Notes: generated by a model from the sequence alone, not told the origin. A DNA stretch of 21,881 nt from a virus (IMGVR_UViG_2671180357_000006:1-21881), one strand, 5' to 3'; counted from the first letter of the stretch, positions 1,076-21,881 are shown. Numbers and translations are program-made.

Positions 1076-3415
1076 TTAATCTTCTAATTCATCTGTCGGT
1101 GATGTCTTCTCGCGCCTGTCATCTATTGCCTGTAACGCAGCAATGATTTCAGCTAATGGCTTCTCCCGGTACATCTCGACGATCTGTGATTTGGTGTATT
1201 TCTTCTCGCCAATTTCCACACGCCCGCTGGCGCTCTTGGGCAGGTATCCTTCCTCCAGCATGTATTCGACCAGAGACTCGACGACGTCCAGCCCGCGAGT
1301 CGGGTCGAAGTAGAATTTCCATGAGCATTTGCCAAACGGAGGCGCGACTTTGTTTTTAATGCACTCGGCGCCAACGTCCTGTCCGATCTTCTCTTTGCCA
1401 TCCTTCATGACGGATGCACCCAGACGGATGCGCACCGACGCGTAGAACTTCGGAGAGTCGCCACCCGGAGACGTAGTCGGATCGCCAAACATCACACCAA
1501 TTTTGGTACGCACCTGGTTCAAGAAGATGATGCACGCGTTGTACTTACGCGCCCAAAGCGCCAGAGTAGGGAAGTTCGCACTTGTCGCGCGCGCCAGCGC
1601 CGTGTTGTCGTTCATGTTCAGCTGATCTTTGTCCTTCGCAGTGCCTTCTGCCATCTTGTCGAACTTCTCAGCCTTCGAGTTCGGAACCATCGACGCCAGA
1701 GAGTCGGCTACGATGCAGATAGGGGCTGTTTCCGGAATAAGCTCTTCGTCGCGCACCAGCTTGAGGATTGTGCCGATCAGCTCTACGGAGTCTTCGAAGG
1801 TATCCGGCTGTTTGTAGACCCACTGACCGTCGTCTTCGTCGGCGTTCAGTCCGTTCGCTACCGCCAGACCAACGTCGAAACTGTTTTCGTGGTCAAGGAA
1901 TACGGCCAGACCATCCTGTTTTTGTGCTGACACCATCGCAGCCGTCGCGAGGAATGTGTTGTGGCTGATAATCCCGTTAGACCAGAAAGAGTGTGTTTCC
2001 GGCATCGCTACGTCGAACGTTGGTGCTTCACCTTCCTCAATAGCCACGACTTCGTCGTAGAACAAGTTAGAGTCAATTACCGCTGCCAGTTGTGCAAACA
2101 GATGCTCGTTAAAACGATTCTTTCTGCCAATGAAGGAGACATAGATTTCTCGCAGTTTGTCTATTCCGACACGATCGCCGCGGCCAATAACGTGATCTAC
2201 CAGAACGTAGTCTTTACGAGAGGTCTTGGTGAGTGACTCGTAGAGTGATTTCACTAAGCCGCTGATGTGCGGAACGTAGCCTAAATAAGTGCGGTCAAAA
2301 CTAATGTCCCGTTTGGTTGCCACTGCTAAACGAGCCGGAGACTCGAACCCAATCGTTGACAGGAAAAGGTCGTAGTTAGAGCCACTGAATGACAGCCGGT
2401 AATATATGTTTTTATAACCTGCGACGTGTTTTTCAGAGATAGTTGACGTAATCCCCAGATTCAGGAGCATGAGGCGAATTTGCTGTAGCAGCAGCCCACT
2501 CGCGCTCACAACCTCAATGCAGCGACCATCATTGACGTGGCATTCCAGCTCAAAGTAGCCGCGAAGGAATGCAATTTGAGCCTCGCTATTGGCGCGACGC
2601 ACACTCAACGGAACCTGCTTGCCAGCAGCTTTCTCATACTCCAGACCATATTCTTTAAAAAGCAGCGAACGCACCTCTTTGCTAAACAGCACATGGTCTT
2701 CCGAGCCGTTATGTTTTCTCGTAACTGGCATCTTGTCTGATACCAGCGAAATGAGGCGGTAGTACTCATCCTTGATGAATGGATCTGTGTTAGAAACATG
2801 CACAGAATTTTCAGAGGCCACGTATCCGTCAGCAATTAAATAGCCCATCAGTTTTGCGATATTGGCATCCAAGTGCTGATCGCCGAATTGATGTGTGCCA
2901 ACCATTGAAGGAATAGTGTCGCCTACACTGATTTTTTCAGCATACCGCCAGACGATATTGCCTAAGTCGTCAACCACACGAATTGGGTGACGGAACGTAG
3001 CCTCGATGTAACCCCCTGATGCCAGCTTAATGCGCTTGAATTTGCGACGGTTGTTCCATGTCAGGTGTGAGGTCTTCTCTATCACGCCATTTTCATTGAT
3101 GAGTCCAACGTTATGCTCTACATCGCGAGTAGTGCATGTTGCTTTGTGCCCCTCAATCTCAAACAGTTCTTTCACTGTTACCATTCCACGCTCCGTCAGC
3201 AGCATGGTGTCTGCGGTAACACATTTCCCCGCGCTTGGTGGCCCGAAGACTTCAACGATACGCCCACATGGAAAACCACCGTCGTAACGTCCGGAAATGG
3301 CTTTGTTCAGTGGAGGGAAACCGGAGTCAATCCAGTGGGAGACCTTCTGAATCTCGTCATTGCTGCCGATTTTCTTTTTCAGCGCCAGTGCCAGTGCGGA
3401 TTTGCCTTTTGCCAT
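1076..3415 (-). CDS. RecA-family recombinase interrupted by an intein (779-aa precursor; exteins total 357 aa)
   Basis: N-extein ends GRIVEVFGPPSAGK and the C-extein starts TFLATAAMV, which rejoin to a Walker A motif GPPSAGKT. The C-extein carries FLNQVRTKIGVMFGDPTTSPGGDSPKFYASVRIRLG, closely matching the bacterial RecA core [36 protein letters not shown]. AGGAG RBS 7 nt upstream of the ATG. Confidence 0.9.
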   Translation of the reverse strand: MAKGKSALALALKKKIGSNDEIQKVSHWIDSGFPPLNKAISGRYDGGFPCGRIVEVFGPPSAGKCVTADTMLLTERGMVTVKELFEIEGHKATCTTRDVEHNVGLINENGVIEKTSHLTWNNRRKFKRIKLASGGYIEATFRHPIRVVDDLGNIVWRYAEKISVGDTIPSMVGTHQFGDQHLDANIAKLMGYLIADGYVASENSVHVSNTDPFIKDEYYRLISLVSDKMPVTRKHNGSEDHVLFSKEVRSLLFKEYGLEYEKAAGKQVPLSVRRANSEAQIAFLRGYFELECHVNDGRCIEVVSASGLLLQQIRLMLLNLGITSTISEKHVAGYKNIYYRLSFSGSNYDLFLSTIGFESPARLAVATKRDISFDRTYLGYVPHISGLVKSLYESLTKTSRKDYVLVDHVIGRGDRVGIDKLREIYVSFIGRKNRFNEHLFAQLAAVIDSNLFYDEVVAIEEGEAPTFDVAMPETHSFWSNGIISHNTFLATAAMVSAQKQDGLAVFLDHENSFDVGLAVANGLNADEDDGQWVYKQPDTFEDSVELIGTILKLVRDEELIPETAPICIVADSLASMVPNSKAEKFDKMAEGTAKDKDQLNMNDNTALARATSANFPTLALWARKYNACIIFLNQVRTKIGVMFGDPTTSPGGDSPKFYASVRIRLGASVMKDGKEKIGQDVGAECIKNKVAPPFGKCSWKFYFDPTRGLDVVESLVEYMLEEGYLPKSASGRVEIGEKKYTKSQIVEMYREKPLAEIIAALQAIDDRREKTSPTDELED
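1958..3223 (-). other. intein (422 aa) with LAGLIDADG homing-endonuclease domain, inserted in the RecA P-loop between K and T of GPPSAGK/T
   Basis: Starts with Cys (CVTADTMLL) and ends SHN, followed by Thr as the +1 extein residue. Two LAGLIDADG-type motifs inside (LMGYLIADGYV and FLRGYFELECHV). Removing it restores a canonical RecA P-loop. Confidence 0.8.
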
Positions 3416-6365: not shown

Positions 6366-6926
6366 ATGGGGATAATTCTGATAACCTGTAGTCAGTACTG
6401 CGTAGTCGCAGATGCTCTGTATAGCCACGGTTGCGATGATGCGCTCATTTGCTACTACGGAAACTCAGTGTATGTAGAATTTGACCGAGAAGCTAAATCT
6501 TTAGATGAAGCAATCGAATCGGCAATCCTTGATATTGAAACAGCAGGCATTGGCGCAGTGGTGGAATCGGTAGATTCAGCACTGGTAGGCTTGAGCGATA
6601 TTGCTCAACTCTCTGGCTTAACGCGCCAGGCTATTACTCTGCTTAAAGACGGATTACGTGGCAAAGGTGATTTTCCTTGCCCTGTTCAGCGTATCAGCGG
6701 TCAGTCTCCACTCTGGGACTGGGCGGAAGTCGCTAAATGGTTGAACGACTGCGGTCGTCTTGACAGCAAAGACGAAAAAGCACGGGAAGAACTGGTGCGT
6801 AACGCGCGCACATTGAGTACGTGGAATCTTGCCCTGCGTATAAGATCGTTGGGCGACATTCATGAGGTGGAGAGAGTTACTCGCTCACTCAGTCACTCGC
6901 AAGACTGCGAAAAAATTTGCGCATAA
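6366..6926 (+). CDS. putative HTH DNA-binding protein, possibly HicB-like antitoxin fold (186 aa)
   Basis: The only plus-strand gene inside the minus-strand module. Central segment GLSDIAQLSGLTRQAITLLKDG looks like a helix-turn-helix; the N-terminal part loosely resembles HicB-type antitoxins. Ends at a strong bidirectional terminator. Confidence 0.5.
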   Translation: MGIILITCSQYCVVADALYSHGCDDALICYYGNSVYVEFDREAKSLDEAIESAILDIETAGIGAVVESVDSALVGLSDIAQLSGLTRQAITLLKDGLRGKGDFPCPVQRISGQSPLWDWAEVAKWLNDCGRLDSKDEKAREELVRNARTLSTWNLALRIRSLGDIHEVERVTRSLSHSQDCEKICA

Positions 6927-9900: not shown

Positions 9901-10461
9901 GTAGAATGGGGTAGGGTGCGGATAAACCACGCTGTAGAAGTTATCGCGTCCTCCAGCTGTCACCAGCGTCCCGATAATCTTTGCGAAGTCCCGGCGCTGG
10001 AATACACTGCCAATGTCGGACGTCAGCAGGATGATGTTGCCTTTGGCATATGCGGCCGCCAGCTGGTCAAGTGCCAGACGCGGAACAAAGTAGAATTGCT
10101 CGCGCTTGTTGGCTAAGGTCATCAGTTCGCACACGTCGCGATAACCTTGCTCATTCTTTATCAGTGCCGTGAAGCAGTAGCTTCGATCACGCACCAATGA
10201 TTCCATACATCCTCCTGACTCTTTCGCCAGGCGGGCGCGATGCTCGTATGTCGGATCGTCGACCACATTCAGCTTAACACCACAAATAACCGCCATGTCG
10301 TCGCCAGCGGCACGCTGCAGGGGGATCACACTGGCAATGTTCATGCTGTCAGCGGAAATGACAGCGGTGTAGCCAGCGTCTCTCGCGATTTTCACCGCGT
10401 TTTCTGCTTTTAGAGCTGACTCTCCCAGGGAGAAGTCAGTTCTGACCATCAGAGCCTTCAT
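6955..10461 (-). CDS. DNA polymerase III alpha-type (DnaE family, C-family polymerase), 1168 aa, with a non-canonical C-terminal domain
   Basis: Strong DnaE motifs: [10 protein letters not shown]...[27 protein letters not shown]...[21 protein letters not shown] (palm with catalytic aspartates), FRPGP, [42 protein letters not shown]. The N-terminal PHP-like region lacks the His pairs. Confidence 0.92.
   Translation of the reverse strand: [1168 protein letters not shown]
6958..7404 (-). other. C-terminal ~150-aa domain of the DnaE-like protein resembling a family-4 uracil-DNA glycosylase fold with degenerate catalytic motifs
   Basis: [18 protein letters not shown]...LYVTGVCKK...[17 protein letters not shown]...[14 protein letters not shown] aligns by eye with family-4 UDG (LVLVGEGPGEEEDKTGRPF...VYITNIVKCRPP...IVPLGAVAA...FPMFHPAYLLRNP); GEGPG is replaced by DNANG and HP by NP. 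It sits where bacterial DnaE has its OB-fold and tau-binding region. Confidence 0.55.
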
Positions 10462-14259: not shown

Positions 14260-14292
14260 CTGTACGAACAGGCATCTAATCTGTTCGTACAG
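14260..14292. promoter_or_regulatory. perfect 12-bp inverted repeat (candidate operator) in the promoter region of the CobT/CobS/DnaE gene block
   Basis: CTGTACGAACAG-N9-CTGTTCGTACAG, 54-86 bp upstream of the CobT-like start, overlapping a plausible -35/-10 on the minus strand. Confidence 0.4.
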
Positions 14293-14318: not shown

Positions 14319-14531
14319 TTAAATTGTGCGGACGGCTACTGAACCGCAGCCGGTATTGATGAGAGTGAAGCACTTGCCCTTTAGCTCAAAGATGTATGCG
14401 GTTGCGTCTTTCATGTCAAGTAACAAAGACTTTGTTGGCAGTTCAGTGAGTATGGCTGCTGCCCCATCATCGTCAATTGAAATCGTATGTCCGACCTCAA
14501 GGGCGATCAAATTAGAAGTTATTTTTTTCAT
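14319..14531 (-). CDS. hypothetical small protein (70 aa)
   Basis: First gene transcribed leftward from the divergent AT-rich control region; GGA-type RBS; the antisense ORF 14326..14655 is less plausible. Confidence 0.4.
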   Translation of the reverse strand: MKKITSNLIALEVGHTISIDDDGAAAILTELPTKSLLLDMKDATAYIFELKGKCFTLINTGCGSVAVRTI

Positions 14532-14787
14532 TTCATATCATCCAACTGAACACGTAAATACCTTGCAATACTACTACCTATTGTATCAATACGGAATACT
14601 TATGTATCAAATACAACTTAGTTTTAAGTTCTTAAATGAGTTATTTTTTAGATAGTTGTCTATTAGTGAAGCCTTTTGCGGTCAGTAAACCTATGTAAAA
14701 AAATAGATAAGTCTTTACAACACTAACCTTTGATGTAATATCAGTAAGCACTTACCAAATAAAATCAAAACACGCAGGTTGATAATT

Positions 14788-15177
14788 ATGGCTACCAACG
14801 AAACAAAAGAAGCTAAAGTAAGTCGCTACGCTGCTTACATTGACGCTTTAATCGCGATTTCTCCGAAAAGCCAGGCGACCATCGCGAAAGAAGCAGGCTA
14901 TAAAAACCCTAACAATCTTTCACTTATCAAGAGCGGCAAAATCCCGCTTCCGATCGACAAGGTCAGAGCGTTGGCTAAAGCATTGGATGCCGATTCGGTC
15001 CGATTGATGCTAATGGTGCTGGAAGAGCGTCATCCAGAGCTGTTAGCGTTTTTTCGCGACGAAGGCACAGCCCCTCTGACTAAAGATGAAAAACTAGTTC
15101 TGGAAGCCTTCCGTCGACGTTTCGGTGACCAACGTGGTGCGTCGGAGCGGGTTGTTGAGGCAATCAAGTCGCTATGA
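14788..15177 (+). CDS. putative HTH transcriptional regulator (130 aa from ATG; the track's TTG start at 14779 is less likely)
   Basis: SQATIAKEAGYKNPNNLSLIKSGKIPLPIDKVRALAKAL looks like a helix-turn-helix; AGG 9 nt upstream of the ATG; transcribed divergently from the 70-aa gene across a 256-bp AT-rich region; stop overlaps the integrase stop. Confidence 0.6.
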   Translation: MATNETKEAKVSRYAAYIDALIAISPKSQATIAKEAGYKNPNNLSLIKSGKIPLPIDKVRALAKALDADSVRLMLMVLEERHPELLAFFRDEGTAPLTKDEKLVLEAFRRRFGDQRGASERVVEAIKSL

Positions 15178-16275
15178 GAAATTTACACGGATTAGCTCAG
15201 TAGCGAGTCGATCTCCCTTGAACTTATGATCTATCTCCTCTAAATCCTGTTTCTCTACGATTGATGCGATGTACGCCGAAAAACTGTTTAAGGCGTCTCG
15301 CATCTCGTCTATATAATCGTGTCGATCGTATACTCGATCTATCCCCTCAAGACTGTGGTTCATAATTTTGCGGGATACCTCCTGACTTATGCCTAACGCG
15401 GGGAAGTAACTACGCGCAGTACGACGCAAATCTCGGGGAGTAAATGGCTCAAGCTCCATCAACTCTGGACGTTCTAAAATCCTTCTCAACGCCTGTGATA
15501 TGGCCACCTTAGACATTGGCACATCCTCACCCTGTTTCTTGTTTGAAGGAACAAGCCACTGGCTGCCTTTTCCGTATTTGATCAGCTCCTCAACACATTT
15601 GCGCATTAGCGGGCTTAATGGTAACGAGTGCTGGCGAGCCGATTTATTCCTCGTTCCTTGATTCCATAAATTATATTCGAGGTTGAATTCTGATCTTTTA
15701 GCTCGGAGCACTTCATCTGGTCGTCTGGCCGCTACAAGACATAATCTGGCCGCCCACTTTGTACCCTCACATACGTTGAAGTAGTCCCATACATTCCAAA
15801 AGACCCAGACCTCTGCGTCGGTCAGTTTGCGCTCGCGAGGCGTGGGCTTCGCGCCACCGGCTACTCTGTTAAGCGACATATCGTTCAATGGGGATGTATC
15901 AATTAAGCCCTGAAATGCACACCAACTGAGAAACTGCTTCATCAGCGAGAACACACGTCTGCCCTGGACGATCTTGCCCTCAAGTATTAATGGGTTCACC
16001 AGCTGGTTGACTAAAACCCTACTAATGTCACTTACTTTTACTTCACAGATATGCGGCATTACATGTATCAAAATACAATGAACAGCTATTTCAGGTCGAC
16101 GTCTCGTTATCAGCAAAGATAAGCGAGTGAATAACATGAATGCGGAAGAAAACGACATGTCACCGTCGAAATTGGTGGTCGACACTGCTGACAAGCCGGA
16201 AGCGCGTTCGAGATACTCGATGGCTTCTCTAGAGGTGTTTTCTGCTGCGCGTGCTTTATCAAAAGTGTTTTTCAT
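15172..16275 (-). CDS. int: tyrosine recombinase / integrase, P4-type catalytic domain; N-terminal arm-binding domain not recognisable
   Basis: Catalytic-domain motifs LTDAEVWVFWN, RLCLVAARRPDEVLRAKRSEFNL, TPRDLRRTARSY, IMNHSLEGIDRVYDRHDY (R..H-x-x-R..Y). The first ~70 residues do not resemble the usual P4-type N-terminus. Confidence 0.85.
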   Translation of the reverse strand: MKNTFDKARAAENTSREAIEYLERASGLSAVSTTNFDGDMSFSSAFMLFTRLSLLITRRRPEIAVHCILIHVMPHICEVKVSDISRVLVNQLVNPLILEGKIVQGRRVFSLMKQFLSWCAFQGLIDTSPLNDMSLNRVAGGAKPTPRERKLTDAEVWVFWNVWDYFNVCEGTKWAARLCLVAARRPDEVLRAKRSEFNLEYNLWNQGTRNKSARQHSLPLSPLMRKCVEELIKYGKGSQWLVPSNKKQGEDVPMSKVAISQALRRILERPELMELEPFTPRDLRRTARSYFPALGISQEVSRKIMNHSLEGIDRVYDRHDYIDEMRDALNSFSAYIASIVEKQDLEEIDHKFKGDRLATELIRVNFS

Positions 16276-16303: not shown

Positions 16304-16323
16304 TACTGTATTTATAAACAGTA
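16304..16323. promoter_or_regulatory. LexA (SOS) box-like palindrome over the putative integrase promoter
   Basis: TACTGTATTTATAAACAGTA matches the gammaproteobacterial consensus TACTGTATATATATACAGTA at 18 of 20 positions (CTGT-N8-ACAG). It lies 29 bp upstream of the integrase ATG, abutting a -35 TTGATC, 16-bp spacer, -10 TAATAT on the minus strand. Confidence 0.55.
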
Positions 16324-16372
16324 TATTAGGCCTAAGTTTTGTATGATCAACAGTAAAATAGACTGTTTTTGA

Positions 16373-16407
16373 AAATGATTCCATACCTTACAAGTATGGA
16401 ATCATTT
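16373..16407. repeat. perfect 14-bp inverted repeat / hairpin in the integrase-cassette intergenic region
   Basis: AAATGATTCCATAC-N7-GTATGGAATCATTT. No clean U-tract on either strand, so terminator, recombinase-binding site and att core are all possible. Confidence 0.4.
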
Positions 16408-16574
16408 ATATAGCTTACGTAAATTCTGAATAAATTATGTAGACAAACCATCTTAAACGCTAAATAGTAAAAAGCGCCTAATAACGCCAACTTTGGAATG
16501 CCATCTGAGCCAGATTGATGAGAATGATTTGTTAGAAGAAAAAGAATGATGAAGAAGATGACGATCGCTAAAGT

Positions 16575-16991
16575 TCAGCTAGAATGGAAACCTTCTGCGA
16601 CTTCAGCGAAGTAGCTGAGCAACCTAGTATCTCTTGCTGGCATACGATCGTGAGCTGGAGTGACTAGCCCCATCAGCAAAAAACGCCCGCTATCCCACAT
16701 GTGCTCGGTATAAACGAGATAGTGGTTTGAGGTTCGGTTGTAGTTCTCTTGCCTTGCGTTCCAGGTAAGCTGGAAATGCAAATTGACGTGAATATGCTGG
16801 ACATTAGCATCAACGGCGAACGGCGGGAAGTCAAATGGTGCATCTCGTCCAAGAAGATTAGATGGTGCGCCAGTTGATTTGTAAGTAATGAACTCGGATT
16901 TGAGCTGACTTTCTAGGTCAGGGTAAACGACAAAAGTGGGCTGAAAAAAATCATCCCACGTAACTTGACTGTATTCAGCCGTTAATGCCAT
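16575..16991 (-). CDS. hypothetical protein (138 aa), second gene of a two-gene cassette
   Basis: ORF with ordinary composition; start overlaps the stop of the upstream 182-aa gene by 10 bp (translational coupling). No recognisable motif. Confidence 0.5.
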   Translation of the reverse strand: MALTAEYSQVTWDDFFQPTFVVYPDLESQLKSEFITYKSTGAPSNLLGRDAPFDFPPFAVDANVQHIHVNLHFQLTWNARQENYNRTSNHYLVYTEHMWDSGRFLLMGLVTPAHDRMPARDTRLLSYFAEVAEGFHSS

Positions 16992-17530
16992 TTAGCCGCA
17001 GCCTTGTTGCCAGTCTCTAATAGATGGTTCATGGCTAAAAGGTTGACACCAGAGTCACGCACTACAGAAGTGCGTGTAATCTGATCAATCAGATTGAGAT
17101 AGTTTTTGGTCGCAATACTGACCATTTTAATAGCCTTAAAAAACGCAAACTCAACAGTGTTTTTTTCGTAAGACATGATGACGTCTTTTTCAGGTAACAT
17201 CAAAACAAAAGATTCTGCGATACCGGCTACATGAATAGTTTGATTCTTAATTTCTTCCGCTACTTTGATAGCAGCAAAGAAGTCAGTGTCAGCATAATGA
17301 GCAAGTTCAGCGCGGCTTGAACGCAGTTCTTTAGCCAATTCATTGAGAGCAGCTGTAAGATCACTGATGTCGGTTTTGTTGACTCTAGCGCCCATCTCAT
17401 AAACCCGTTCGACAATCGTAGGCTGACACGCAACCGCTTTGGGTTGCGGCTGGATACTGGCAAGAACCAGTGCCACTGCTGCCTGCAAATGCTGGATTTT
17501 AAATTTCACGATAGACTCCATAATCGTCAT
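16982..17530 (-). CDS. hypothetical protein (182 aa), first gene of a two-gene cassette
   Basis: ORF downstream of the tRNA terminator, co-oriented with the 138-aa gene. No recognisable motif. Confidence 0.5.
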   Translation of the reverse strand: MTIMESIVKFKIQHLQAAVALVLASIQPQPKAVACQPTIVERVYEMGARVNKTDISDLTAALNELAKELRSSRAELAHYADTDFFAAIKVAEEIKNQTIHVAGIAESFVLMLPEKDVIMSYEKNTVEFAFFKAIKMVSIATKNYLNLIDQITRTSVVRDSGVNLLAMNHLLETGNKAAAKWH

Positions 17531-17609
17531 TTCTCGACGAAGCGTAGCATTCTACTACTGAACTTAACTATAAGCTAAAAAAAGTTGGTTGCATATGCGA
17601 CTTGATAGC

Positions 17610-17631
17610 AAAAAGGGGCCGAAGCCCCTTT
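17610..17631 (-). terminator. rho-independent terminator downstream of the tRNA
   Basis: Minus-strand reading gives GGGGC-TTCG-GCCCC followed by TTTTT (GC stem with a UUCG tetraloop). Confidence 0.65.
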
Positions 17632-17705
17632 GGATTTTGCGCTGAAAAAAGTGTTGCTACGATGCTTAGAAGCAATGGTTAAAAAACGTCTGCCGTGTCT
17701 ATCAC

Positions 17706-17780
17706 AGCGCTGAACGGTCTGGCGACATTTGCGGAGTCTTTCGTTCGGACGGTGATGGCGAATCCAAACCGTTCAGCGCT
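17706..17780. repeat. 13-bp perfect inverted repeat flanking a 49-bp spacer, directly 3' of the tRNA
   Basis: AGCGCTGAACGGT (17706-17718) and ACCGTTCAGCGCT (17768-17780); the tRNA CCA end is at 17785-17787. Confidence 0.5.
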
Positions 17781-17784
17781 ATGT

Positions 17785-17859
17785 TGGCGATGGTGGGTGG
17801 ACTCGAACCACCGACCAGTTGATTAACAGTCAACCGCTCTACCACTGAGCTACACCATC
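17785..17859 (-). tRNA. tRNA-Asn (anticodon GTT)
   Basis: Minus-strand sequence GATGGTG-TA-GCTC-AGTGGTA-GAGC-G-GTTGA-CTGTTAA-TCAAC-TGGTC-GGTGG-TTCGAGT-CCACC-CACCATC-G-CCA folds as a canonical cloverleaf with perfect 7-bp acceptor, 5-bp anticodon and 5-bp T stems, a TTCGAGT T-loop and encoded CCA. Confidence 0.88.
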
Positions 17860-17952
17860 ATTTTCGCGGCGGTACTAGCTTATGGACAACCAGGCAGCCA
17901 GAAACTTTCCCGTAACTTGCACTTTACGTTAGTGCCAGACGAGGTATGTGGC

Positions 17953-17968
17953 TCGCTCATATGAGCGA
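17953..17968. repeat. 16-bp perfect palindrome TCGCTCATATGAGCGA
   Basis: Self-complementary 16-mer centred on CATATG, about 95 bp upstream of the tRNA 5' end and 39 bp outside the transposon IR. Confidence 0.5.
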
Positions 17969-18006
17969 AGATCTCGAATCTTTCTCGGTGGTTGATTGCC
18001 GTTAGA

Positions 18007-18044
18007 GGGGGAACCGCAGAATTCGGAAAAAATCGTACGCTAAG
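18007..18044 (+). repeat. 38-bp terminal inverted repeat of the Tn1721-like transposon (outer end at 18007)
   Basis: GGGGGAACCGCAGAATTCGGAAAAAATCGTACGCTAAG: Tn21-family IR signature including the EcoRI site known from Tn1721 ends. Flanking 5 bp outside are TTAGA. Confidence 0.85.
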
Positions 18045-18144
18045 CTAACGGTGTTCTCGTGACAGCTCTTTGACTAGGCTTTCTAAGGCCATTCTGATAG
18101 CCCTGACTTCCTGAAAAGCCATGGCTAAAATTTGTGCGGCTAAA

Positions 18145-18176
18145 AGGGATAACCGATGGTAAAGTAAGTTATCCCT
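18145..18176 (-). terminator. hairpin 3' of mcp; weak candidate terminator
   Basis: 9-bp stem AGGGATAAC / GTTATCCCT with a 14-nt loop, about 20 bp after the mcp stop; only TTTA follows on the minus strand. Confidence 0.35.
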
Positions 18177-18195
18177 GTCGAGATACTGAAAAGCG

Positions 18196-19773
18196 TTATC
18201 CTCGTTTTTCCCAAAACTGTTTTGCCAGTTCGCTCAGAGCGCTAGTTAACTGAGCGACAGATTTCGCACTTTGCAAATTATTCTGCCCGGTCTGTACATT
18301 GGTATCAGCAGCATCGCGTATATTGATAATACTGCGGTTTATGTCTTCACTTACTGCTCCCTGCTGCTCGACCGCAGTCGCTATTTGCGCGTTCATGTCG
18401 GTAATTTCGTTAACGCGTTGGCCAATTCCATCAAGAGCTGTAGCTGCTTCCTCTGCGTGAGCTACACTCGTGTGCGCTTGCCGACTACTTTGCTCCATGA
18501 CTGTAACAGCGGATTGCGCTCGCTCTTGTAGAGCGCTGATCATGCTTTGAATATCCGTTGTCGATTGCTGTGTGCGAGCAGCAAGACTGCGAACCTCATC
18601 GGCGACAACAGCAAAACCACGCCCCTGCTCACCAGCACGCGCGGCCTCAATTGCTGCGTTGAGTGCCAACAAATTCGTTTGCTCGGCGATCCCTCGTATA
18701 ACGTCAAGAACTTTTGATATCTCGTTACTTTGACCTTCAAGCTCATGAATAACCTGAGTGGCTTGCCTAATTTCACCTTCAAGGGCAGTGATTGACTGGC
18801 TTGTGTGGGCTACCAGACGCTGGCCAGATGCCGTCTCAGTGTCTGCTCTTCCGGCCGCATCTGCAGCATGCTGTGCATTGCTCGCAACCTCTTGAATGCT
18901 TGCCACCATTTGGTTTACTGCCGTTGCTATTTGATCTGTCTCTGCCTGCTGCTCAACTGTAAGTACATTGCTTGACTCAATATCCTTTAGTAGGCCTCGG
19001 GTGTGTTCGCTAAGCCGATTTGATGCATCACCTATGCGACCTACTATGGCGCCTGTTTCAGCTTGCATCATTCGTAAAGCAAACTCTATTTGGCCAAACT
19101 CATCGGTGCGCCCAGTGTAGAGGGATTGACTTAATGGGTTATTGGAAATATTCCTGGCTCTTTCAACCAGTCTTCCAAGAGGAGAGAGAATAGCCAAAAC
19201 ACTAACAGAGCTTAAGCTTCCTGACATTAAAGTGGCTAACAATAAGCTGCTTATTGATGTATCAGTAAGCATGCCGGCAGCCATTGCGCTTGATATAATA
19301 CTACCCCATATGAGCAAGAGTATTTTCACGGAAAAGCTAGCAGCCAATTTCGGCCTCGCGGCCTTCCCGCTTCTCAATTGAGCATATAATTTTTCCGCAG
19401 CCAAAACCTGCTCAGGTTCAGGCTTGGTCCTTACAGACTGGTATTCAACAATCGAACCATTCTTAGCTATTGGCGTTACATAAGCACTTACCCAATAGTG
19501 GTCGCCATTTTTACAGCGATTTTTTACTAGCCCCATCCATGAGCGGCCAGATTTTAATGTACTCCACATATGCTCAAATGCAGCAGGCGGCATATCTGGG
19601 TGTCTTACGATGTTGTGAGGCTGGCCTAATAGTTCTTCCTCAGTGAAACCACTGATTTTAATGAAGTCAGGATTAACGTATGTGATATGGCTTTGAGGGG
19701 AGGTAGTCGAAAGAATATTGGCATCTTTTGGGAGTTCTAAGTTTCGACCCGTCACTGGTAAATTCTGGCGCAT
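18196..19773 (-). CDS. mcp: methyl-accepting chemotaxis protein with N-terminal PAS domain (Aer-like); transposon passenger gene (525 aa)
   Basis: N-terminus [75 protein letters not shown] parallels the E. coli Aer PAS region; the MCP signalling domain has [32 protein letters not shown]; hydrophobic segment in the middle; GAGG RBS upstream. Confidence 0.9.
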
Positions 19774-19924
19774 AAGAACCTCAAGGGTTGGCTGTTTTAT
19801 TTTATTGTTTTCGGCATTAAGCCCAATTTCTTGAGCGTTACGATAAAGCTAGCATGGAAACGATAGGTGCAAGCAAGTTAAGGGTTGCATCGCGCATGTC
19901 AATCTAGGCTATACCCTAACTTGA

Positions 19925-20075
19925 TGTCAGGCAGGGCCGCGCCGCTTCGTCAGAATAGAGTCTGCTTTCCCATTTTTTGACACATGCCCGCGAAGGTTAT
20001 AGATTTCAGCCTGACAGAAATGGGCTTTGAGGCACAACGGAACAGAAAGTGCACTTAAGCCGCCTTCAACCAAGG
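19925..20075. promoter_or_regulatory. res (resolution) site and tnpR promoter region of the transposon
   Basis: Clustered imperfect TGTCA/TGACA-type half-site pairs (TGTCAGGCAGG...CGTCAG, CGTCAGAATAGAGTCTG...TTGACA, TGACACATGCCC...CAGCCTGACA) between mcp and tnpR, as expected for Tn21-family res subsites; followed by an AAGGAG RBS before the tnpR GTG. Confidence 0.5.
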
Positions 20076-20082
20076 AGACATC

Positions 20083-20643
20083 GTGCAGGGGCACCGCATC
20101 GGCTACGTCCGGGTCAGCAGCTTTGACCAGAACCCGGAACGCCAGCTGGAACAAACCCAGGTGAGCAAGGTGTTCACCGACAAGGCATCGGGCAAGGACA
20201 CCCAGCGCCCCCAGCTCGAAGCGCTGCTGAGCTTCGTCCGCGAAGGCGATACAGTGGTGGTGCGCAGCATGGATCGGCTGGCCCGCAACCTCGATGACCT
20301 GCGTCGCTTGGTACAGAAGCTGACTCAGCGCGGCGTGCGCATCGAGTTCCTGAAGGAGGGCCTGGTGTTCACTGGCGAGGACTCGCCGATGGCCAACCTG
20401 ATGCTGTCGGTGATGGGGGCCTTCGCTGAGTTCGAGCGCGCCCTGATCCGCGAGCGGCAGCGTGAGGGCATCGCCTTGGCCAAGCAGCGTGGCGCGTACC
20501 GGGGCCGCAAGAAAGCCCTGTCCGATGAGCAGGCTGCTACCCTGCGGCAGCGAGCGACGGCCGGCGAGCCCAAGGCGCAGCTTGCCCGCGAGTTCAACAT
20601 CAGCCGGGAAACCCTCTACCAGTACCTCCGCACGGACGACTGA
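20083..20643 (+). CDS. tnpR: serine resolvase TnpR (Tn21/Tn1721 subgroup), GTG start
   Basis: MQGHRIGYVRVSSFDQNPERQLE... with the catalytic serine region, and C-terminal HTH ISRETLYQYLRTD; near-identical by recollection to Tn1721/Tn501-type resolvase. Confidence 0.95.
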   Translation: MQGHRIGYVRVSSFDQNPERQLEQTQVSKVFTDKASGKDTQRPQLEALLSFVREGDTVVVRSMDRLARNLDDLRRLVQKLTQRGVRIEFLKEGLVFTGEDSPMANLMLSVMGAFAEFERALIRERQREGIALAKQRGAYRGRKKALSDEQAATLRQRATAGEPKAQLAREFNISRETLYQYLRTDD

Positions 20644-20646
20644 CAC

Positions 20647-21881
20647 ATGCCGCGTCGCTTGATCCTCTCGGCCACGGAGCGGGACACCCTGCTTGCGCTG
20701 CCGGAAAGCCAGGATGACCTGATCCGCTACTACACCTTCAACGACTCCGACCTGTCGCTGATCCGCCAGCGACGCGGCGACGCCAACCGCCTCGGCTTCG
20801 CCGTGCAGCTCTGCCTGCTGCGCTACCCCGGTTACGCGCTGGGAACCGACAGCGAGCTGCCCGAGCCGGTCATCCTGTGGGTGGCGAAGCAAGTCCAGGC
20901 CGAGCCGGCGAGCTGGGCAAAGTACGGCGAGCGCGACGTGACCCGTCGCGAGCATGCCCAGGAACTGCGCACCTACCTGCAACTGGCCCCGTTCGGCCTG
21001 TCCGACTTCCGCGCCCTGGTGCGCGAGCTAACCGAGCTGGCCCAGCAGACCGACAAAGGCTTGCTGCTGGCCGGTCAGGCCCTGGAGAGCCTACGGCAGA
21101 AACGACGCATCCTGCCGGCGCTGAGCGTGATTGACCGGGCCTGCTCGGAAGCCATTGCGCGAGCCAATCGGCGGGTCTACCGCGCCCTGGTCGAACCACT
21201 CACGGACTCGCATCGGGCCAAGCTGGACGAGCTGTTGAAGCTCAAGGCCGGCAGCAGCATCACCTGGTTGACCTGGCTGCGCCAGGCACCGCTGAAACCC
21301 AACTCTCGGCACATGCTGGAACACATCGAGCGGCTGAAGACATTTCAGTTGGTGGACTTGCCCGAAGGCCTGGGCCGGCACATCCACCAGAACCGCCTGC
21401 TCAAGCTGGCCCGCGAGGGTGGGCAGATGACGCCCAAAGACCTCGGTAAGTTCGAGCCGCAGCGCCGCTACGCGACCCTGGCCGCCGTGGTGCTGGAGAG
21501 CACCGCGACCGTGATCGATGAGCTGGTCGATCTGCATGACCGCATCCTGGTCAAGCTGTTCAGCGGCGCGAAGCACAAGCATCAGCAGCAGTTCCAGAAG
21601 CAGGGCAAGGCGATCAACGACAAGGTGCGCCTGTACTCCAGGATCGGCCAGGCGCTGCTGGAAGCGAAGGAAAGCGGCAGCGACCCCTATGCCGCCATCG
21701 AGGCGGTGATTCCCTGGGACGAGTTCACCGAGAGCGTCAGCGAGGCCGAGCTGCTGGCCCGGCCGGAAGGCTTCGACCACCTGCACCTGGTCGGCGAGAA
21801 CTTCGCCACCCTGCGCCGTTACACGCCGGCCTTGCTGGAGGTGCTGGAACTGCGCGCCGCGCCGGCCGCGCAAGGCGTGCT
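20647..21881 (+). CDS. tnpA: Tn3-family transposase TnpA, 5' partial (first ~411 codons; runs off the window end)
   Basis: ATG at 20647, 3 nt after the tnpR stop; translation [44 protein letters not shown]...[12 protein letters not shown]...[10 protein letters not shown]... matches the Tn21-family TnpA N-terminus. Absent from the ORF track because no stop is reached. Confidence 0.92.

Follow-up and report, generated by a model that had tools for sequence, protein, structure and literature searches.

The 21,881-nucleotide (nt) stretch IMGVR_UViG_2671180357_000006:1-21881, hereafter the window, comes from an SSU5/pHCM2/pMT1-type phage-plasmid of Escherichia coli and carries a LexA (SOS) box in front of a tyrosine recombinase gene (int, annotated as an integrase). 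By its sequence, the site belongs to the E. coli type of SOS box, and it occupies an operator position, adjoining the -10 hexamer and lying 28 nt before the start codon. It is highly likely to be a real LexA operator; its conservation and the published expression of a relative argue that it works, and DNA damage is very probably required for the recombinase to be made. We also consider the wider statement likely, namely that a working LexA operator on a sigma-70 promoter is combined here with a Cre/lox-like recombinase module, probably for multimer resolution.

E. coli plasmids of 106-115 kb, typed IncFIB and non-mobilizable, match the window at 99.7% identity, and Escherichia phage Cyrano, which is the phage-plasmid pLF82 of E. 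coli LF82, does so at about 74% at the DNA level. Weaker matches were found to about 800 PLSDB plasmids of Klebsiella, Escherichia, Enterobacter, Yersinia (pMT1), Salmonella (pHCM2), Citrobacter and Cronobacter. The element carries repA and parAB, and the window holds a replication and recombination block (an intein-bearing RecA, a 5'-3' exonuclease, a gp32-like single-stranded DNA-binding protein, DnaE, and CobS-like and CobT-like proteins). Since the near-identical plasmids reside in E. coli and the relatives in Salmonella, Yersinia, Klebsiella and Enterobacter, the host LexA recognises the CTGT-N8-ACAG class. A first interpretation of the window made from the DNA alone (the sequence-only reading) had suggested such a LexA and a gammaproteobacterial host, and the identity to E. 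coli plasmids bears this out.

The LexA box and the recombinase promoter

Compared with the E. coli consensus TACTGTATATATATACAGTA, the box TACTGTATTTATAAACAGTA has just two deviations, at positions 9 and 14, and both are in the spacer. It is the single exact CTGT-N8-ACAG of the window, and also the single match to TACTGT-N8-ACAGTA with at most one mismatch (0.01 expected from shuffles). Every 20-mer of the window was scored with a heterology-index matrix made of 27 E. coli LexA boxes, which is not a curated matrix. The box has an index of 2.0, inside the range of 0.8-9.5 covered by the 27 known boxes of this matrix (umuD 0.8, sulA 3.7, recA 5.2), and the second-best 20-mer of the window has an index of 12.3. 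In random windows (first-order Markov, n = 3000), the best index was 6.05 and none of the 3000 reached 5 or below. The sequence-only reading had described two spacer deviations and a sole box in the window, and both statements hold in the comparison with the consensus and in the exact and one-mismatch scans; the matrix scoring that it suggested as a check places the site within the range of known operators.

Read on the minus strand, the order is the inverted repeat (16407-16373), 22 nt, the -35 hexamer (16350-16345), 16 nt, the -10 hexamer (16328-16323) and the LexA box (16323-16304), which ends 28 nt ahead of the recombinase ATG (16275-16273). The same reading had the box abut a plausible sigma70 promoter upstream of the integrase ATG, which agrees with this layout and with the conservation of both hexamers in relatives, the distance found being 28 nt. 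Indeed, the -10 region of the int promoter, ATATTAGG, is kept in most relatives, and GATCAA (the -35 hexamer on the other strand) is at least 90% conserved across 73 distinct relatives. A terminator-like hairpin with a T-run closes the yafO toxin operon upstream and would insulate the int promoter from upstream transcription; the promoter therefore looks like an independent unit.

In K. pneumoniae p377C1 (L011), a group II intron with a reverse transcriptase (563-2500) separates the LexA box from the int start codon. The intron is on the int strand, which fits transcription of that stretch in the int direction.

For the comparison of the box across relatives, 79 IMG/VR loci were gathered via the neighbouring inverted repeat and not via the box, and plasmid and genome loci were added. 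The box could be compared in 86 orientable loci, and a column profile was made from 73 distinct sequences. The exact CTGT-N8-ACAG is present in 82 of the 86 loci, and the other four have CTGT-N8-CCAG or CTGG-N8-CCAG, deviations which are also found in the genuine LexA boxes of dinI, ruvA and cho. At least seven versions of the spacer occur with the tetramers fixed (ATTTATAA, ATAAGTAA, ATGCATGA, ATGTATAA, GTTTATAT, ATGTTTGT and ATATATAA). In the column profile the half-sites, the -10 and -35 hexamers and the repeat arms are conserved, while the flanks and the spacer centre are variable. A Serratia homologue, whose protein is 59% identical, has the box TACTGTATATAAATACAGTT (index 0.8) directly 3' of TTGACG-17-TAACAT: TAACAT is followed by ACTGT, and the box abuts the -10 hexamer in the same layout as in the window. 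The pattern of fixed half-sites, a free spacer and tolerated variants only is that of purifying selection following the LexA motif.

The complete relatives pGS04EC-1 (106,228 bp) and Cyrano (108,379 bp) contain exactly two strong LexA boxes each. In pGS04EC-1, the int box has an index of 2.0 and the second box, TACTGTATACGTATACAGTA, an index of 4.3 (L018 31006-31025; pGS04EC-1 81006-81025). This second box lies 16 nt upstream of a gene for a 129-amino-acid (aa) S24 peptidase starting MGFPSPAADY, which is HumD/UmuD'-like. Similarly, the Cyrano boxes belong to int (index 4.6) and to a humD-like gene (index 2.4, at 89275-89294), and the distance to the humD-like gene is 16-17 nt in both relatives. 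A two-gene SOS regulon shared by elements which are 74% identical in DNA is unlikely to be a coincidence.

Published expression data exist for Cyrano. Misson et al. re-analysed LF82 RNA-seq data (GSE154648) and presented macrophages as a genotoxic niche in which SOS is induced; ciprofloxacin induces Cyrano, and Cyrano virions are not produced in macrophages (PMC9928086). Expression is given here as the mean log2 value per condition from the S1 and S4 Tables of PMC9928086, for a relative that is 74% DNA-identical to the window. The values for int (CYRAN_44) are 5.6 in lysogeny broth (LB), 7.9 and 6.1 after 1 h and 6 h in medium, and 8.9 and 10.3 after 1 h and 6 h in macrophages; those for the humD-like gene (CYRAN_98) are 7.2, 9.7, 9.1, 11.3 and 12.2 in the same order. 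From 6 h medium to 6 h macrophage, int rises by 4.2 log2 (about 19-fold), which is inside the range of 2.6-4.8 of host SOS genes (sulA 2.6, dinI 4.3, umuD 4.8, umuC 3.0), and the humD-like gene rises by 3.1. On this comparison int ranks 8th of the 123 Cyrano genes, and dnaE and repA barely change. The profile of int is the behaviour expected of a LexA-repressed gene, yet it is non-specific.

The recombinase and its adjoining repeat

R185, K211, R284 and Y316 of the recombinase are invariant in the alignment of its homologues, R281 replaces the first His, and H307 is nearly invariant; as the catalytic residues are invariant, the enzyme should be active. An AlphaFold2 (AF2) model (predicted local distance difference test, pLDDT, 86.8) has an all-helical N-terminus on a two-domain body resembling lambda Int, XerH and Cre, and among PDB structures it best matches lambda Int, Tn1549 Int, IntI, XerH and Cre. 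Searching the PDB by sequence gave nothing useful, and no sequence relationship to Cre could be detected. Among sequence relatives with annotated domains, the closest are P4/CP4-57-type integrases (NCBIfam PRK09692; P0114-P0120, 24-33% identity). Homologues down to 42% identity contain PF22022 and PF00589 only; the arm-binding domain PF13356 is confined to homologues of at most 33% identity, and the alignment has a gap where this domain would sit in the recombinase family.

In a survey of E. coli, all 253 copies of the gene are plasmid-borne and none is chromosomal (252 of 5426 complete genomes). Two homologues of 45-48% identity stand alone on Pantoea (508-kb) and Rahnella (723-kb) megaplasmids, among ordinary genes, and no phage or XRE genes were found around them. 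The product looks like a simple two-domain tyrosine recombinase devoted to plasmid maintenance, and not like a chromosomal integrase.

The perfect inverted repeat upstream of the promoter has a 14-7-14 structure in the window. Among relatives, 13-bp arms are invariant around a 7-bp spacer, which differs by lineage (CTTACAA, ATAGTAG, TTAATAG, CTACCAA and others). A repeat is found upstream of the recombinase gene in every homologue examined: the arms are TGATTCCATAC in one group of homologues, and TGACTCCAGAC/GTCTGGAGTCA beside the homologues of 45-48% identity, with the same 7-bp spacing and position, the TGACTCCAGAC group including those on the non-phage Pantoea and Rahnella megaplasmids. There is one full repeat per replicon in pGS04EC-1 and in Cyrano. 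No chromosomal copy was found in complete E. coli genomes, where all matches are on plasmids. The gene and the 13-7-13 site are thus linked, inherited together and co-varying, which is the signature of a recombinase with a simple core site, and the repeat is most likely the cognate site of this recombinase.

Two other roles of the repeat were considered and rejected. It is not an intrinsic terminator: there is no conserved T-run on either strand in relatives, and the arms are invariant rather than compensatory. It is not an operator of the XRE repressor either, since it accompanies the recombinase on the Pantoea and Rahnella megaplasmids, which have no XRE or phage genes there.

One arm of the repeat also recurs singly. 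In the window, an exact extra copy lies inside dnaE, and it is kept in relatives at the DNA level; protein conservation was rejected as the reason for this, the encoded DnaE segment not being conserved. The arm ATGATTCCATACATC occurs in dnaE and, in relatives, in two further copies to the right of the cargo region described below, 992-1039 bp apart (e.g., L017 17699-17714 and 18719-18734; the Cyrano copies are at 37802, 38814 and 47010). The settings of these copies are antisense in dnaE, about 200 bp upstream of a tRNA cluster, and the start of a small gene. The single copies are far above the number expected by chance, their positions are conserved, and they may be extra binding sites of the recombinase. 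They are absent from the Xenorhabdus and Providencia relatives, where neither arm version was found.

Neighbouring genes and the cargo region

The features discussed here are collected in Table 1.

Table 1. Positions of the LexA box, the recombinase module and neighbouring features in the window
Feature	Position	Strand	Basis or remark
LexA (SOS) box TACTGTATTTATAAACAGTA	16304-16323	.	sequence, matrix score, conservation
-10 hexamer TAATAT, int promoter	16323-16328	-	read from sequence; final base is the first base of the LexA box
-35 hexamer TTGATC	16345-16350	-	read from sequence; 16-nt spacer to -10
Perfect inverted repeat AAATGATTCCATAC-CTTACAA-GTATGGAATCATTT	16373-16407	.	22 nt upstream of -35; candidate lox-like core site
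Tyrosine recombinase gene ("integrase", 367 aa), without arm-binding domain	15172-16275	-	Pfam PF00589 Phage_integrase 6.5e-9; phrog_1 integrase
XRE-type regulator gene ("putative repressor" in Cyrano; 132 aa)	14779-15177	+	phrog_8; convergent with int, 6-nt overlap of int end
70-aa gene, CYRAN_46 homologue	14319-14531	-	phrog_2627; downstream of int, same strand
Terminator-like hairpin and T-run, end of upstream yafO toxin operon	16473-16488	-	would insulate the int promoter
YafO-family toxin gene	16575-16991	-	Pfam PF13957
Exact extra copy of one repeat arm, AATGATTCCATACAT	10196-10210	+	inside dnaE, antisense

The convergence of int and the XRE-type regulator gene is kept in the Serratia, Nissabacter, Xenorhabdus and Providencia relatives. 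At 14714-14760, the XRE gene has a strongly conserved promoter (TTTACA-16-TAATAT) and, behind it, the palindrome GTAAGCACTTAC, which is probably an operator. GTATCA(A)ATAC motifs are repeated on the other side of the intergenic region.

No terminator-like site was found between int and the 70-aa gene. In macrophages no Cyrano gene is induced more strongly than CYRAN_46, the homologue of the 70-aa gene, and the profile of CYRAN_46 tracks that of int (r = 0.98). Upstream of the 70-aa gene itself lies a conserved region, which weakens the idea that read-through from int is the sole source of the induction of CYRAN_46. Between the 70-aa gene and the CobT-like gene there is a hairpin (14260-14292, CTGTACGAACAG-N9-CTGTTCGTACAG), which is not a LexA box; expression in Cyrano falls sharply across its equivalent, from 10.8 to 5.9 log2. 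In the replication and recombination block, the gene of the RecA homologue (1076-3415, minus strand) is split by an intein that contains a LAGLIDADG homing endonuclease domain.

Directly beyond the repeat lies a cargo hot spot (window 16408-18006, with equivalents in L001-L011) whose length is 1.2-6.7 kb. The cargo is YafO in the window, the caf1 F1-capsule operon in Y. pestis pMT1, omptin, chorismate mutase and S6 peptidase genes in Cronobacter, a sialate esterase in Shigella, and a colicin-immunity gene in Klebsiella. No copies of the repeat were found at internal cargo boundaries, nor were scars of recombination sites found there. In the window, the YafO module (16575-17530, minus strand) comprises the toxin and an upstream 182-aa partner of no assigned family. 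The chromosomal yafNO of E. coli is part of the LexA-controlled dinB operon; no LexA box lies ahead of the yafO copy of the window. The loss of homology at 18006 was considered as a recombinase junction and rejected: a Tn3-family TnAs1 transposon (18007-21881) ends at this point. This transposon has the terminal repeat GGGGGAACCGCAGAATTCGG..., carries a gene for a PAS-domain methyl-accepting chemotaxis protein (PAS-MCP), and recurs on thousands of plasmids in copies of 99.9% identity.

Proposed mechanism, alternatives and known systems

We propose the following mechanism. A LexA dimer bound to the box would cover the final base of the -10 hexamer and the expected transcription start near 16316 (minus strand), which would keep the gene nearly silent. 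Upon DNA damage, RecA would become active, LexA would cleave itself and the int promoter would open. The recombinase would then act at the plasmid-borne 13-7-13 repeat, and not in the excision of a prophage from the chromosome. Going by the analogous systems Cre/loxP of P1 and XerS/difSL, its likeliest job would be the resolution or circularisation of plasmid or phage multimers: during the SOS response RecA is active, homologous exchange would increase and the element would enter lytic replication, and each of these would generate multimers. Keeping the recombinase off at other times would lead to less unwanted recombination, an argument that has been made for integron integrases (PMC3108266). 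We put the chances at about even that the enzyme acts at the repeat and serves resolution or circularisation.

Several observations weigh against this interpretation. With 8 of 12 consensus matches, the int promoter falls below the threshold of a consensus scan, and seven close relatives have a weaker -10 hexamer (TAACAT, TAACAC or CAACAT). The box and the -10 hexamer are degenerate at Buttiauxella-type loci, and no good box was found at Nissabacter-like loci or at the 45-48% homologues of Pantoea, Rahnella, Xenorhabdus and Providencia; LexA control is therefore a clade-specific feature, added to an older module, and the recombinase can do without it. The expression data were obtained in a relative with 74% DNA identity. 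Within it, hicAB and CYRAN_60/61 of Cyrano have no strong box and are induced as strongly as int, and int is already raised at 1 h in medium, where sulA and umuD are not. The three extra half-sites are not explained by a simple resolution model. Finally, a 186-aa protein encoded at 6366-6926 (plus strand, opposite to its neighbours) is assigned to phrog_2620, "excisionase and transcriptional regulator" (4.6e-85); it has no Pfam match.

This last gene would suit a classical phage integrase, with DNA damage gating chromosomal integration and excision via LexA, and so would the integrase label given by Pfam and PHROG and the P4/CP4-57-type integrases as nearest relatives of known domain content. 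The sequence-only reading had likewise taken the box to control excision and integration. This part of it does not stand up well against the plasmid-only distribution of the 253 copies, the absence of an attB-like copy of the repeat from any E. coli chromosome, and the lox-like repeat that travels with the gene. The element has repA, parAB and an IncFIB type, PF13356 is missing from the protein, and homologues live alone on non-phage megaplasmids; we regard a chromosomal integrase as very unlikely. A mere chance match, or the site of another protein with LexA not regulating the gene, is less credible still, to the point of being barely tenable. It is true that the bare CTGT-N8-ACAG pattern with one mismatch is common in the window (5 observed, 7.4 expected) and that several homologues work without a box. 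The full 20-mer, however, is far beyond chance, its conservation matches the LexA motif down to the tolerated variants, and the second box of the replicon stands at a HumD/UmuD'-like gene, a type of gene with a known link to SOS.

The promoter could also serve mainly as the SOS input to a lysis-lysogeny switch. Its transcript would cover int, cross the XRE gene in antisense and continue into the 70-aa gene, which may encode an antirepressor; the recombinase would be a passenger. The convergence of int and the XRE gene with a 6-nt overlap in all phage-plasmid relatives, the lack of a terminator-like site before the 70-aa gene, the macrophage induction of CYRAN_46 in step with int, and the presence of only two strong LexA boxes per genome are all consistent with such a switch. 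So is the fact that the 132-aa XRE protein matched no peptidase family, which calls for an indirect link to SOS, Cyrano being inducible by ciprofloxacin. We nevertheless find it unlikely: the strongly conserved region upstream of the 70-aa gene has promoter-like and operator-like elements of its own, XRE mRNA goes up and not down in macrophages, no Cyrano virions are made there despite the induction of int and CYRAN_46, and the box is absent from the Xenorhabdus, Providencia and Nissabacter relatives with the same gene order. An integron-like platform for the SOS-triggered capture or exchange of cargo, in place of a resolution system, would account for the variable region of 1.2-6.7 kb that starts immediately past the repeat and for the fixed spacing of 992-1039 bp between the next two copies of the motif, and a LexA-controlled recombinase has its parallel in integrons (PMC3108266). 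The internal cargo boundaries, however, have no repeat copies, and the right-hand copies are half-sites with differing adjacent 7-mers, unlike crossover products. The end of homology in the window belongs to an ordinary Tn3-family transposon, and hot spots beside recombinase genes are common for other reasons. A cargo platform is, in our view, very unlikely. Hardly more probable is the bolder notion that SOS drives acquisition, loss or exchange of cargo at the lox-like site (e.g., the Y. pestis F1-capsule operon, toxin-antitoxin or virulence genes), perhaps with rearrangement via the half-sites in dnaE and near the tRNA cluster, as in an integron- or shufflon-like plasticity device.

The recombinase module that we favour can be compared with Cre/loxP of P1, a phage living as a plasmid. 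Cre is a single tyrosine recombinase without an arm-binding domain, its site has two 13-bp inverted arms around a short asymmetric spacer, and the system serves in multimer resolution and circularisation. The plasmid-phage lifestyle, the lack of an arm domain and the 13-bp inverted arms are shared with the module of the window, and Cre is among the structural matches of the AF2 model. The spacer is 7 bp here and 8 bp in loxP, and the two recombinases have no detectable sequence relationship. The cre gene is not known to be controlled by LexA.

LexA control is established for the promoters of the integron integrases (intI1 and V. cholerae intIA), and it has been lost in some lineages (PMC3108266). 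As in the window, an E. coli-type LexA box partly overlaps the -10 hexamer of a tyrosine recombinase promoter on a mobile element, and the recombination site adjoins the gene. The differences are that the recombinase is here P4-like without an arm domain and not an IntI, that the site is a double-stranded 13-7-13 repeat and not attI/attC, that there is no cassette array and no repeated sites bound the cargo, and that the element is a phage-plasmid. In XerS/difSL and XerH/difH, a single recombinase is linked to its own adjoining site and inherited with it as a module (PMC2731167, PMC2965235). The module of the window likewise has its site beside the gene, and XerH is one of its structural matches, whereas the Xer systems resolve chromosome dimers in a process coupled to FtsK and the present family is found on plasmids and phage-plasmids, with an SOS box in one clade. 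The P4/CP4-57-type integrases, the closest sequence relatives with annotated domains, contain PF13356 and integrate at tRNA genes, in contrast to the family of the window, which lacks this domain and is never chromosomal in E. coli. Finally, the N15 antirepressor and GIL01 are cases in which extrachromosomal prophages use the host LexA directly to sense DNA damage (reviewed in PMC11652158). Host LexA would be read directly in both situations, but there an antirepressor or a lytic promoter is regulated and here a recombinase gene, the link to induction being the switch hypothesis weighed above.

No earlier mention of this LexA site was found in the searchable literature on LexA with SSU5, pMT1, pHCM2 or pLF82, nor does that literature describe the sensing of DNA damage by SSU5-type elements or the means by which these low-copy replicons of about 110 kb stay monomeric. 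LexA boxes on the promoters of integron recombinases and LexA-controlled induction genes of plasmid-prophages are known; what is new is another recombinase lineage, another kind of site and another kind of element.

SSU5-type phage-plasmids are common in clinical Enterobacteriaceae, and their family includes Y. pestis pMT1 and S. Typhi pHCM2; the module is present in 252 of 5426 complete E. coli genomes and on about 800 PLSDB plasmids. The candidate pair of recombinase and site is directly testable and could serve as a tool. If the box works, antibiotics that trigger the SOS response (quinolones, trimethoprim) would turn on site-specific recombination beside the region that carries virulence and resistance cargo.

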